NCBI GenBank assembly: GCA_000004695.1
Contig: CM000152.2
Span: 4,000,001 to 4,064,000 of the forward strand
Direction of reading: 5' to 3'
Source of the DNA: Dictyostelium discoideum
Lineage: Eukaryota
DNA: 64,000 nt
Shown here: piece by piece, positions 46,834 through 57,419 of the stretch
Numbering within the stretch: the stretch's first letter is position 1
Layout of the letters: each line of letters opens with the position of its first letter
Position numbers and translations under genes: made by a program
Notes under the pieces: generated by a model
Databases searched by the model: none
The model's input: the letters and a program-made list of their open reading frames with translations, nothing else
Told to the model about the DNA's origin: nothing

Positions 46834-49800
46834 TTATTTATTTATTATTAGATGAACTAAATATTTTTGATTTAAAACTCTTTTATTTTTTGGTGGAAAA
46901 TCAATAGAATCAATTAGTAAATTTGACAATTGAAAATTTGAAGAATCTATTGATTTTAAAACCATACCACATAAAAAATTCAATTGAAATAATGATGATT
47001 GATTTGTTTTTGTTCTCACTTTTAATAAAGATTGACTATTTTTATTAGATGATAGAATGTTTTTGAAAATTTGGGTGAATCCTTTTCCAGAAGCTACACA
47101 AAGACAATTATAAAGATGATTGATTGTATTATCATTTAAATTTTCAATAAAATAATTAATAAGTAATTCAAGATAATAACTTGAACATATATTATATAAA
47201 TAAGATTCTTTAGTAAAATTTGGGAAATATGTTGAACTAAAAATTTCAGGTATTTTATCAAAAAGATAAAAAATATCCTCAAACCTATCTAAATAATAAA
47301 GACAAATAAATAACATTCTGGGTGAAATTATAAAATCAAATGATTTTGTTTCACCAATAATAAATTGTCCAACTTCTTCACTATTTGTTGTTGATATTGT
47401 TGAGGTGAGTGGAATAAAATCATCTCTACCATAATATAAATGTGGAATATTGAAATTACCTTTAACTTGATATAACTTTGGTTCAATTGATTCTTTTGAA
47501 ATATTATTAAAAATTAATTTGATAAGGTTTGGAATTTTATTTGGTGATGGAGCACCATATATAATATCAGAAAATCTAAATGGTTGTTTAAATATTTCAT
47601 TTGGTAAAAAGAAATTGATCACAACTTCATTACCATTTTCTAAAGACCAACCAAATATATTTAACAAAGTGGTATTACAATAATAACCAGAATCAAAAAA
47701 AAATGAATATAATAAAGGTTTTGAAATTGCTCTTTTTAATTGATCCAATAATATATTTACATTATATTTTTTTTCATTATTTTTATTTCCATTTGTGAAC
47801 CAATTACTATATTTTACAAAATATAATTGTAACTTTTTACCAATACTTTCCATTATTTTTTCAATATGATCAATAATATTAACATGATTATTATTCCAAT
47901 TTTGATTTTGATCATCAAATAAAGTAGTTTCATTTCTATAATTTTCAAAAAAAAAGTCGACAATTTCATTTTTATTAATATATTGAAAATTGATTGATAT
48001 AATATAAGAGATACTTGGAAATTGTGTTTTTGAGTTTTGAGCAAGTTGTAACTTTTTTATTGTTTTAATTAGATGGTCAATTAATTCTGTATCGTTAGTT
48101 GAAAATACAACTCTACAAAATGAATTAAAACTTGTAAAATTAAAATTAGATCCAATATTTTGAAATGAGACTCCATTTTCAATATCTAAAATTTTTGATA
48201 CTAATTCTAATCTTTGATTTCTTTCAAGTTGTTGATCAATTAAAATACTTTTAAAAAATATTAAACAATCATCATATTTCTTAATAAAAAATCCACAAAA
48301 TATTTCATATAATTGACTAACATTCATTTTTTTTTTAAAATATAAATAATAATGAAATGGTCTCATTAAATTTCTATCATGTTTTCCTTCTTCAATAATT
48401 TTTAAAAATAAATAAATTGATTTATAATATTTTTTAATAATATCTTTTAAATCACTGCAATTATTATTGTTTGTTATTAATATTGGAGTGGTGGTAGTGG
48501 TTTTTGTTTGATTCAATAGATTTTTAATTGTCGAATTTAATTGATCATCAGTAAAATGAGAGAATTGAATTTCATTTAATTCTAATATTAATTGATCTAA
48601 TTTTTCAATATAATCCAATATTTGTAGTTGTCGTCCCTCTCGTTGTTGTTGTTGTTGTTGTTGTTGTTGTTGTTGTTGTTGTTGTTGTTGTTGTTGTTGT
48701 TGTTGTTGTTGTTGTTGCTGTTGTTGTTGTTGTTGTTGTTGTTGTTGTTGTTGTTGTTGTTGTTGTTGTTGTTGTTGTTGTTGTTGTTGTTGTTGTTGTT
48801 GTTGTTGTTGTTGTTGTTCTTGTTCTTGTTGTTCTTGTTGTTGTTGTTGTTGTTGTTGTTGTTGTTGTTGTTCTTGTTGTTGTTCTTCTTGTTGTTGTTG
48901 TTGTTGTTGTTCTTGTTCTTGTTGTTGTTCTTGTTGTTGTTGTTCTTGTTGTTGTTGTTGTTCTTGTTGTTGTTGTTGTTGTTGTTGTTGTTGTTGTTGT
49001 TGTTGTTGTTGTTGTTCTTGTTCTTGTTGTTGTTGTTTTTGTTCTTGTTGTTTTTGTTGTTCTTGTTGTTGTTGTTGTTGTTGTTGTTGTTGTTGTTGTT
49101 GTTGTTGTTGTTGTTGTTGATGTATTTCTCGTATTTCTTTAAATTTTGTAGGATCGACTAATAATTTATATGATTTTATAAGTCTTTTAAATTTATAATC
49201 AAATGATAGACTTTCTGATAAATCAATATTAGAAAATCGTTGTTTAATATGTGATGTTGGAATAGCATTAATTGATTTTAAATAATTGTAAATTTTTAAA
49301 TTATTATATGAAAATACATTAAAGAATGATGGATTAATATGCATTTCTATACTTTTTTTTAAAACATCTGAATTTATTTTAAAAAATTTAATAAATTGAT
49401 CTAATGCTACTAAATTTTCATTTAAAATCATTCTTTGAATCCATAGATCAATATTTTCATCAAATTGGAAAATCAACGATTTTGTTGATTGCATTGTTGT
49501 TGTTGTTGATGATGATGAAGAGAATGTTGAAAATAATGTAGTATAAAATGAAATTGTTTCATTATCTTTTTTTTTTAATGTTTTAATAATATTTACAATA
49601 TCATTTACACTTCTGATTATTTGATGATTAATATTTCCTTTAATATTATCTTTTATTATTTCTAATGAATTACTATAACTTTTTAAAAAGTTTTCATTTA
49701 TACCAATTAAATCATGATAACCAAATTGTTTACTTTTAAAATTTGAAAATATATTTTTAAAAATGATCATATTTCTAAAAGCTTTCCAAAAATAAATTTC

Positions 49801-54497: not shown

Positions 54498-57419
54498 TTA
54501 TTTATTTTTATTTATTTTTATTTTATTTATTAGATGAATTATTTTTGATTTTAAAACTTTTTCATTTTTTGGTGAAAAATCAATAAAATCAATTAGTAAA
54601 TTTGATAGTTGAAAATTTGAAGAATCTATTGAATTTACAACGATATCATGTAGTAATTTCGATTGGAATAATGATGATTGATTTGTTTTTGTTCTCACTT
54701 TTAATAAATATTGACTATTTTGATTAGATGATAGAATGTTTTTGAAAATTTGAGTGAATCCTTTTTTAGATGCTACACAAAGACAAGTATAAAGATGATT
54801 GATTGTATTATCATTTAAATTTTCAATAAAATAATTAATAAATAATTCAAGATAATAACTTGAACATATATTATATAAATAAGATTCTTTAGTAAAATTT
54901 ATGAAATATCCTGAATTAAAAATTTCAGGTATTTTATCAAAAAGATAAAAAATATCATCAACCCTATCTAAATAATAAAGACAAACAAATAAAATTCTAG
55001 GTGAAATTATAAAATCAAATGATTCTGTTTTACCAATAATAAATTGTCCAACTTCTTCACTATTTGTTGTTGTTGTTGTTGTTGTTGTTGTTGGTAAATG
55101 AGTAAATGTTGAGGTGAGTTGAATAGAATTATCACCGTAATATCCATGAGAATAATTGAAATTACCTTTAACTTGATATAACTTTGATTCAATTGATTCT
55201 TTTGAAATATTATTAAAAATCAATTTAACAAGGTTTGGTATCTTATTTAATGGTTCACCACTTATAATTAGAGAAAATCTAAATGGTTGTTTAAATTGTT
55301 GATTTGATAAAAAGTAATTGATTAAAACTTCATTACCATTTTCTAAAGACCAACCAAATATTTTTATCAAAAAATTATAACTATAATTAGTATTAAAAAA
55401 AAAAGAATAAAATAAAGGTTTTGAAATTGCTCTTTTTAGTAGATCCAAAAATATATTTATATTATTTTTTTCATTATTTTCATCATTTCTGAACCAATTA
55501 TAATAATATATTAAACATAATCTTAACCTTCTACCAATACTCTCCATTATTTTTTCATAATGATCAATAATATTAATATTATTCCAATTTTGATTGTAGT
55601 CATCGAATAAAGTAGTTTCATTTCTATAATTTTCAAAAAAAAGGTCAATTATTTCATTTTTATTAATATATCGAAAATTGGTTGATATAATTTCAGAGAT
55701 TCTTGGGAATTGTGTTTTTGAATATTTAACAAGTTGTAATTTTTGCATTGTTTTAAATAGATGGTCAATTAATTCTGTATCGTTAATTGAAAATACAACT
55801 TTACAAAATGAATTAAAACTTTCAATATTATATCCATACCCGTTCTTTTGAAATGAAATTCCATTTTAAATATCCAAAATATTTGATACTAATTCTAATC
55901 TTTGATTTTTTTCAAGATTTTGATCCACTAAAATACCTTTAAAAAATATTAAATAATCATTATTCTTTTTATGAAAGTTACAAAATATTTCATATAATTG
56001 ACTAACACCCTTTTCTTTTTTAAAATATAAATAATAATGAATTGGTTTCATTAAATTTCCATTACAAAGATTTCCAACTCTAATAATTTTAAAAAATAAA
56101 TAAATTGATTTATAATATTTTTTAATAATATCTTTTATATCACCGCTATTATTATTGTTTGTTATTAATATTGGAGTGTTGGTAGTAGTATTAGTGGTGG
56201 TGGTAGTGGTAGTGGTGGTGGTTGTTTGATTTAATAGATTTTTAATTGTTGAATTTAATTGATCATTTGTAAAATGACTTAGTTCAATTTCATTTAATTC
56301 CAATGTTAATTGATTTAATTTTTCAATGTGTTCTTTTTTATTTGAGTGTAGATTCAATTTTTGTTCTTGTTGTTCTTGTTTATGTTGTTGTAGTTGTTTT
56401 TGATGTATTTCTTGTATTTCTTTTAAGTTTGTAGGATCGACTAATAATTTATATGATTTTATAAGTCTTTTAAATTTATAATCAAATGATAGACTATCTG
56501 ATAAATCAATATTAGAAAATCGTTGTTTAATATGTGATGTTGGAATAGCATTAATTGATTTTAAATAATTGTAAATCTTTAAATTATTATATGTAACTAC
56601 ATTAAAGAATGATGGATTAATATGCATTTCTATACTTTTTTTTAAAACATCTGAATTTATTTTAAAAAATTTAATAAATTGATCTAATGCTACTAAATTT
56701 TCATTTAAAATCATTCTTTGAATCCATAGATCAATATTTTCATCAAATTGAAAAAGTAATGATTTTATTGGTTGTATGATTGTTGTTGTTGAGTTGGATA
56801 TTGATGATGAATATGCTGAGAATAATGTAGTATAAAATGAAATTGTTTCATTATCTTTTTTTTTTAATGTTTTAATAATATTTACAATATCATTTGTATT
56901 TCTAATTATTTGATGATTAATATTTCCTTTAATATTATCTTTTATTATTTCTAATGAATTACTATAACTTTTTAAAAAGTTTTCATTTATACCAATTAAA
57001 TCATGATAACCAAATTGTTTACTTTTAAAATTTGAAAATATATTTTTAAATATTATCATATTTCTAAAAGCTTTCCAAAAATAAATTTCAAGTTGATCAA
57101 CATCTTTAATTAGTAATACATATTGTTTTTGTTGAGGTTGTTGTTGAGGTTGTTGTTAAGGTTGATTGGTTGTACTATTTGTTAAATCATTTTTAAATTT
57201 TTTTGATAAAAAATAACCTTCAACTCTTTTATAAATTTCTTGTTTTTTCCCAATAATTGGTAAACCTAATGAGTTTGCAATTGTTTGTAATTCTTTGCTT
57301 CTTATTGAATCATAATTAATATCTTCTTTAAACTTTTTGTATGTTAATAAACCATCATTATCATCATCATTATCATTTTCTTGATTTTCAATCTCTTTTC
57401 TTTTATTATTATTAACCAT
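54498..57419 (-). pseudogene. SAP-domain paralog 3, disrupted by two in-frame nonsense codons (TAA at ~57153..57155 and ~55863..55865), no frameshift
   Basis: Track ORFs 57156..57518, 55866..57059 and 54498..55748 are all in the same frame and colinear with paralog 2. The 3' flank at 54280..54497 is homologous to 51000..51225. Confidence 0.6.

Follow-up and report, generated by a model that had tools for sequence, protein, structure and literature searches.

Mosaic evolution in a tandem triplet of UPF0746 SAP-domain genes of Dictyostelium discoideum, with one copy probably broken recently

A head-to-tail triplet of genes on the minus strand of a 64,000-nucleotide (nt) stretch of Dictyostelium discoideum DNA (contig CM000152.2 of assembly GCA_000004695.1; this whole stretch is called the window, and all positions refer to it unless another locus is named) belongs to UPF0746, a protein family with an N-terminal SAP motif. 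The three genes, denoted copies 1, 2 and 3 (c1, c2 and c3; Table 1), are best read as a Dictyostelium-restricted set in which, in all probability, c1 and c2 are kept by selection, c3 was broken recently, and the 5′ part of all three evolves in concert. The genes themselves are already known, since both the reference annotation and Swiss-Prot include them as a family not yet characterised, and the array is a case of real and ordinary turnover of annotated genes. What is added here is the mosaic pattern that separates their 5′ and 3′ parts, the selective maintenance of c1 and c2, and a homology to Sma, a regulator of adhesion and migration; for UPF0746 as a family, the additions are how it evolves, that it is confined to Dictyostelium, a structural model and the connection with Sma.

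Three collinear minus-strand paralogues had been proposed at this locus in an earlier sequence-only reading, and their open reading frames (ORFs), translations and pairwise protein identities of 73-91% (E = 0) bear this out, with no fourth copy found by similarity search within the window. The repeat unit measures about 3.2 kb, and homology between units runs from 10-115 bp upstream of the ATG through 30-260 bp beyond the stop codon, in a window whose G+C content is 15-30%. The identity of its pseudouridine synthase ORF with an AX4 protein (Table 1) places the window on D. discoideum chromosome 3 of the NC4 laboratory lineage, most likely in the AX4 reference.

Mosaic history of the array and the fate of its copies

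Comparative loci were taken from the Nanopore and Illumina assemblies of Holland et al. 2025 (PMC12745789), among which L001 and L002, labelled D. discoideum, are probably tropical isolates, and L003, labelled D. cf. discoideum, is probably a cryptic sister species. L001 and L002 share the gene order of the window (Serinc, pseudouridine synthase, three tandem copies, G-alpha) and have flanks 89-93% identical to it; in L001 all three copies are open, at 975, 970 and 965 residues. Neighbour-joining trees (200 bootstraps) of the three window copies and the six copies of L001 and L002 give two histories for one gene. Over nt 1-1000 the window copies cluster together against all six others with 100% bootstrap, and over nt 1300-2850 the copies cluster by position (100%, 100% and 99.5%), c1 joining the third copy of L001 and L002 (99.5%) and c3 the first (100%), which is open in both (975 and 965 residues). 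These trees show a 5′ third, encoding the SAP and N-terminal helical domains, that appears to have been homogenised among the copies within each lineage since the lineages split, and 3′ two-thirds that would have diverged quickly under weak constraint; the homogenised 5′ kilobase is interpreted as a gene-conversion tract. The locus is thereby a clean, small example of mosaic evolution within a gene, concerted at its 5′ end and diverging at its 3′ end.

Synonymous divergence (dS) between positional orthologues of the three copies, 0.09-0.10, is about that of the neighbouring pseudouridine synthase orthologues (0.083-0.087) and, since three copies are present in L001 and L002 as well, the comparison shows a triplication apparently older than the split of the NC4 (AX2/AX4) lineage from the tropical D. 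discoideum isolates. The corresponding ratios of non-synonymous to synonymous substitution rates (dN/dS) are 0.48-0.75 for the copies and 0.10-0.11 for the neighbour, and the family therefore evolves five to seven times faster than the latter at replacement sites. An array of intronless genes of this kind could have arisen by unequal crossing-over, with gene conversion as the agent of 5′ homogenisation, and its copies may be partly redundant, which would be why the loss of one is tolerated.

How each copy has fared can be judged from its substitutions and from the stops it has or has not acquired. Taken domain by domain, dN/dS lies at 0.26-0.5 for the SAP and N-terminal regions, save for the N-terminal domain of c1 (0.92), and in the C-terminal domain, measured against the orthologue, it is 0.20 for c2, 0.53 for c3 and 1.12 for c1; on these ratios c2 is the most constrained copy. 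Under a neutral model of the whole AX4 branch (0.035-0.045 substitutions per site, with 5-7% of possible changes creating stops), each copy would be expected to take 5.5-10.8 nonsense hits. None is observed in c1 or c2 (P = 2e-5 to 4e-3; for c2 alone, P(0) = 2e-4 to 4e-3), which is improbable under neutrality and therefore points to frames held open by selection; the two stops of c3 (P(≤2) = 0.009-0.086) suggest, by the same token, that its decay has gone unchecked during no more than a part of the time represented by the AX4 branch. On its own branch c3 has accumulated 22 non-synonymous changes and one stop against eight synonymous ones, which does not differ from the 16:6 of the intact sister branch, and this lack of relaxed constraint relative to the sister fits a very recent loss. 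The fastest branch is that of c1, with 33 non-synonymous and five synonymous changes.

The lesions of c3 were compared with L005 (GCA_054883475.1), an independent long-read assembly with a 6.43-Mb chromosome, which aligns to window positions 47789..64000 and which we infer to be AX2-214, since this is the sole laboratory strain in the data set of Holland et al. and the sequences are near-identical. Over these 16,212 bp, the two differ by one substitution and three homopolymer indels (60377..60399, a 23-nt T run; 54166..54169, four T; 63544..63545, two A); all of c2, the first 779 residues of c1 and the TAA at codon 518 of c3 are the same in both, so that c3 is broken in both assemblies. Codon 518 is GAA in all eight other copies that retain it, the site being deleted in L1c and L2c. 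The comparison shows c3 to have been knocked out, to all appearances recently, in the NC4 lineage by a GAA to TAA change at this codon. The single substitution falls at 57158, the first base of codon 88, where the window has T on the coding strand (TAA) and L005 has C (CAA); the relatives have CAA there, or CCA in c1, and all carry C at this base, the L001 orthologue of c3 reading CAA and GAA at the two sites. Three explanations are open to the codon-88 TAA: a mutation confined to the AX3/AX4 lineage, a mistake in the reference, or an artefact of polishing in L005, the last being possible because c1 and c2 carry C there in near-identical flanks. AX3 was obtained by treatment with nitrosoguanidine, a mutagen that produces G:C to A:T changes. 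When the homology search was repeated with c3 in repaired form, the same ten proteins came back, with no intact c3 that was closer.

The first description of c3, with two TAA codons in frame and without a frameshift, thus holds for the present assembly, and the proposed look at other strains recovers the stop at codon 518 in L005 and finds codon 88 open there. The suggestion that both stops might be sequencing errors in an intact copy is made very unlikely by codon 518, reproduced in two assemblies, and that of a very young pseudogene gains from the unrelaxed branch and from stops far fewer than long neutrality would leave. The first base of codon 88, the sole substitution between two assemblies of near-identical laboratory strains, is a warning that calling pseudogenes from a single assembly is risky.

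Other lineages show other copies apparently disabled independently. The middle copy of L002 (gene 10001-12894) has, relative to L001, a 10-bp deletion at about position 11570, outside homopolymer runs, that shifts the frame and that the deposited protein model (P0003, 941 residues) bridges with a false intron. L003 (6624..12160) has two copies only, the first shifting frame near 8500 and the second without residues 1-239, and their 3′ parts group together rather than with any window copy. Taken with c3, these lesions fit a birth-and-death turnover superimposed on concerted evolution; birth and death by itself, as originally envisaged, agrees with the damage in L002 and L003 and misses the concerted 5′ third. 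Automated models in new assemblies fuse genes or splice around such lesions, and need correction.

Table 1. Positions in the window of the three UPF0746 copies, their component features and an adjacent gene
Feature	Position	Strand	Remarks
c1	46834..50127	minus	open ORF, 1097 residues, UPF0746 gene
c2	51226..54087	minus	open ORF, 953 residues
c3	54498..57419	minus	973 codons in a single frame, two in-frame TAA, no frameshift; probable unprocessed pseudogene
Stop 1 of c3	57156..57158	minus	codon 88, TAA; specific to this assembly
Stop 2 of c3	55866..55868	minus	codon 518, TAA; reproducible inactivating mutation
Gln/Glu tract of c1	48643..49119	minus	159 codons, 477 nt
SAP motif of c1	49921..50028	minus	residues 34-69; PF02037 28.4 bits, PF18953 31.1 bits
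SAP motif of c2	53881..53985	minus	residues 35-69; PF02037 27.4 bits, PF18953 29.7 bits
SAP motif of c3	57210..57314	minus	residues 36-70; intact, upstream of stop 1; PF02037 26.5 bits, PF18953 26.9 bits
Concerted 5′ 1 kb (from trees)	c2 53088..54087; c1 ~49128..50127; c3 ~56420..57419	minus	putative gene-conversion tract
Pseudouridine synthase ORF	57793..59529		identical to AX4 XP_640817.1

The UPF0746 proteins and their relation to Sma

Each of the three N-termini exceeds the gathering cut-offs of Pfam for both SAP (PF02037; 26.5-28.4 bits against 23.9) and SAP_new25 (PF18953; 26.9-31.1 bits against 26.3), the shared sequence LQTIAKSLGLPxxGKKQEIYKRIEGYF corresponding to two helices and an extended loop with a conserved Gly and Lys. 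No Pfam family besides SAP matches the remaining ~880 residues of the copies. P0006, an AX4 entry named "UPF0746 protein / SAP DNA-binding domain-containing protein", aligns with c2 at E = 2e-252, with 51% identity and 100% coverage. A paper on low-complexity regions credits Q54UG3 (DDB_G0281095) with 146 Gln over residues 329-521 and with 58 Gln in a row (PMC7773278); c1 has exactly these features and, by them, matches this Swiss-Prot entry. The exact c1 and c2 proteins were not found in a collection of 15 billion proteins or in the contig index, in the case of c2 probably because the L005 annotation fuses it with c3 in one 1854-residue model. The name UPF0746 occurs in no searchable paper, and neighbouring gene identifiers led to nothing but the paper on low-complexity regions and DDB_G0281091, which is unrelated.

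When 1.84 billion representative proteins were searched with a profile built from 12 members of the family, 29 hits reached E ≤ 1e-3 and, among these and the close hits, 31 of the 31 whose source was looked up are from Dictyostelium: the D. discoideum complex, D. dimigraforme, and D. purpureum, the last with at least 15 diverged paralogues. AlphaFold gave a mean predicted local distance difference test score (pLDDT) of 62 and a predicted template-modelling score (pTM) of 0.39 from 12 sequences, and 70.2 and 0.56 from 26 (model 2). In model 2 the helices at 40-49 and 58-83 make up the SAP helix-loop-helix, with a block-mean pLDDT of 65-85 across residues 21-70; some 45 more helices follow, together with one beta hairpin (756-763 / 784-791). 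Neither model has a Foldseek match in the PDB at E ≤ 1e-3; a sequence-profile search of the PDB gave at best a SAP structure (E = 0.43), no Pfam repeat family (HEAT/ARM/ANK/TPR) appeared at E ≤ 0.05, and hhalign between segments of the protein detected no internal repeat (probability ≤ 1.3%). The predicted fold can best be summed up as that of a solenoid-like scaffold, all-alpha and without a specific known relative or a catalytic signature, and the layout of the protein, as modelled, is an acidic N-terminus, the SAP motif, a conserved N-terminal helical domain, a low-complexity linker and an all-alpha, solenoid-like fold of ~550 residues. On the protein side, then, the sequence-only reading was right about a shared SAP motif, a lineage-specific family and the lack of a catalytic motif (none by Pfam, PDB sequence search or fold search); its description of the remainder as otherwise unannotated is correct for Pfam, and overlooks the catalogued family UPF0746.

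The Gln/Glu tract of c1 consists of 142 Gln, 15 Glu and 2 Lys residues encoded by 141 CAA, 1 CAG, 15 GAA and 2 AAA codons, and ends in 58 uninterrupted Gln codons; Tandem Repeats Finder places the repeat at 48642..49123 (482 nt). It had been put at about 250 residues, well above the 159 counted, and was correctly assigned to c1 only: it occurs neither in c2 and c3 nor in the c1 orthologues, of which P0004 has ~25 Gln or Glu residues at this place. Long reads, suggested as a check of its length, agree with it, the whole tract being identical in L005; indels within it between the window and L005 proved to be an alignment artefact, the translations being the same. In the c2 model the corresponding position is a mostly low-confidence helical linker (residues ~290-410), and the tract may have grown by CAA slippage in a linker tolerant of extra length.

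The only characterised relative of the family is Sma (DDB_G0281803), which Kelsey and Blumberg described as having no identifiable homologues, and which they showed to shuttle among nucleus, cytosol or membranes and regions rich in actin, with effects on adhesion, on chemotaxis and on the amount of ampA mRNA (PMC3625868). The weakest hit of the first homology search, P0012 (E = 1.3e-12 in the profile search), is taken to be its orthologue because three published sma primers match inside its gene in locus L004, two exactly and one with two mismatches, where they encode C-terminal residues of P0012. An hhalign comparison of the UPF0746 alignment with Sma and an AX4 paralogue, Q54TP0, gave 99.7-99.8% probability (E = 5e-28 to 7e-27) and 32-33% identity over 208-219 columns that cover the SAP and the N-terminal helical domain; on this evidence the N-terminal ~220 residues of UPF0746 are homologous to Sma. 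Beyond them the resemblance is weak (tblastn, E = 1e-6 to 1e-8 over residues 437-668; hhalign, E = 0.027 for 568-660 against 755-839), and the C-terminal motifs are alike by eye only. In L004 (1..9690), the Sma orthologue (3001-6690) has a paralogue on either side in head-to-tail order, namely a gene of 1097 residues upstream and, downstream, the AX4 Q54TP0 orthologue; the Sma branch, too, thus forms a tandem trio.

By analogy with this distant paralogue, the UPF0746 proteins might be SAP-tethered scaffolds able to reach the nucleus and to act on gene expression or on adhesion. Tethering to nuclear DNA through the SAP motif is plausible but unproven, and the idea of a chromatin or nuclear-matrix factor, raised initially, is tempered by the fact that Sma is not confined to the nucleus. 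As a member of the same superfamily, Sma gives a functional lead for the orphan UPF0746 genes, which, conversely, are Sma paralogues that might mask knockout phenotypes.

Surroundings of the array and alternative readings

Two structural differences mark the surroundings of the window copies. The c1-c2 spacer is 1098 bp long, compared with 329 bp in L001 and L002, owing to an element of ~620 bp (50277..50895) with 125-nt imperfect terminal inverted repeats, whose arms (50277-50401 and 50771-50895) are 78-82% complementary. It looks like a miniature inverted-repeat transposable element (MITE)-type insertion specific to the NC4 lineage, and spacer length suggests that L005 has it too; searches of the window and of L001 and L002 for further copies returned low-complexity noise only. 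At 57584/57585, a point that lies 165 bp upstream of the ATG of c3, a segment of ~3.1 kb is missing from both the window and L005. L001 (3441..6553) and L002 keep this segment in the interval from the pseudouridine synthase gene to their first copy, and in L001 it has two called genes, of 331 (with a signal-peptide-like start) and 123 residues. Because L003 also has a 328-residue gene of this segment, its absence is a derived deletion, which may have taken away promoter sequence of c3, either ahead of the stop mutation or following it. Elsewhere in the window, a tRNA-Ala (AGC) gene at 14778..14850 on the plus strand is the sole tRNA found, and 34001..38000 is very A+T-rich (14.5-16.6% G+C) with no ORF of 200 residues or more.

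Might c3 still serve the cell? It could be a working gene, all three copies being functional, were its stops sequencing errors or read through, and to this extent the missing codon-88 stop in L005, the lack of excess non-synonymous change on its branch and 973 codons free of frameshifts are in its favour. The TAA at codon 518 stands, however, in two independently built assemblies where all relatives retaining the codon have GAA, and a pair of stops fits a recent loss. TAA is the usual terminator in Dictyostelium, and the contexts of the two stops, TAA CAA CAA and TAA AAT GGA, as read from the sequence, do not fit the read-through motif stop-CAR-YYA. A working c3 is accordingly very unlikely. 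Somewhat less so, yet still hard to favour, is a truncated product, either a 517-residue fragment with the SAP and N-terminal domains (in an AX2-like genome) or, in the window, a SAP-only peptide of 87 residues, that could compete with the full-length paralogues for DNA or partners: stop 1 falls 18 codons past the intact SAP motif, the 5′ third is kept paralogue-like by concerted evolution, and ~165 bp of native upstream flank survive, but conversion explains the 5′ conservation without selection, and the 3.1-kb deletion, ending where that flank begins, may have taken promoter sequence. That the ORFs belong as exons to larger genes, in the manner of the 1854-residue c3-c2 model deposited with GCA_054883475.1 (L005 12111..18300), is scarcely credible: every unit comes with an ATG, a SAP motif, a stop codon and homologous flanks of its own, the orthologues in L001 and L002 are called separately at 941-975 residues, the fusion requires the splicing-out of both a stop codon and the whole intergenic spacer, and the same pipeline bridged the L002 frameshift with a false intron. 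The fused model is an artefact.

A different question is why the family evolves so fast. Diversifying selection, through genetic conflict or social recognition with the variable middle domain as an interaction surface, would account for a dN/dS of 1.2-1.7 at residues 631-790 in all three orthologue pairs, for the lopsided c1 branch, for copy number and integrity that vary between lineages, and for the many diverged paralogues of D. purpureum, and the effects of Sma on adhesion and migration would suit it (PMC3625868). Against this, the pooled 94 non-synonymous and 16 synonymous changes at residues 631-790 are not clearly above neutrality, for which a rough estimate is ~81% non-synonymous, and these residues include low-confidence loops of the model; we hold this reading to be a minor, if real, possibility. 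The broader proposal that UPF0746 and Sma form a Dictyostelium-specific superfamily of nucleus-cortex SAP scaffolds, with residues 631-790 diversifying and cluster turnover supplying variants for social or genomic conflict (adhesion, migration, cheating), is more speculative still and in our judgement unlikely.

Selective maintenance of c1 and c2 with a recently broken c3 and a concerted 5′ end remains the preferred account, and several points weigh against it. The near-neutral ratio of c1 on its own branch (33:5), with a dN/dS of 1.12 for its C-terminal domain, may mean that this copy is losing its function or is positively selected. In the 5′ third, stops can be wiped out by conversion, so that the neutral-expectation test loses force there; the frameshifts of L002 and L003 could be errors of Nanopore-based assemblies; and the functional analogy with Sma hangs on 32-33% identity over ~220 residues in a fast-evolving family. 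The labels "functional" for c1 and c2 and "dead" for c3 are likewise drawn from sequence alone.

Comparison with known systems

From the family catalogued in UniProt as UPF0746 the array genes do not differ, for they are that family, c2 and c3 being 73-91% identical to c1. Classical SAP proteins such as SAF-A/B, Acinus or PIAS (Aravind & Koonin 2000, as cited in PMC3625868) likewise have a 35-residue helix-extended loop-helix with a conserved Gly and Lys at the end of a multidomain protein; unlike them, the array copies have no RRM, SPRY, SP-RING or other partner domain, and the rest of their sequence has no relative outside Dictyostelium. The tract of c1 recalls the poly-Q and poly-N tracts of the Dictyostelium proteome in being a long single-codon (CAA) run within a low-confidence linker, a feature common in this genome, and it had already been singled out as such a region (PMC7773278). 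It differs from the usual ones in lying at the long end of their range, with 159 residues and 58 uninterrupted Gln, and in being peculiar to a single paralogue of the three and to the NC4 lineage.

As a genomic arrangement, the array resembles the tgr allorecognition clusters (Holland et al. 2025, PMC12745789), which also combine tandem duplicates, nearby pseudogenes, exchange between copies and copy-number turnover between isolates. The proteins are unrelated, those of tgr being TIG-repeat surface proteins and that of the array an intracellular SAP/helical protein; divergence is far lower in the array.

The closest parallel is Sma, the sole studied Dictyostelium protein of this type and the sole experimental handle on the superfamily. 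Like Sma, UPF0746 proteins have an N-terminal SAP motif, then a homologous helical domain and a large, mostly helical remainder, are Dictyostelium-specific, and are encoded in a head-to-tail cluster of three paralogues. Sma, in contrast, has 1216 residues with long acidic and E/K-rich insertions, and the GBD-FH3 and PTEN hits reported for it from motif scans are not matched by any significant Pfam hit in UPF0746. The shuttling from nucleus to cortex and the adhesion and migration phenotype are features described for Sma (PMC3625868).

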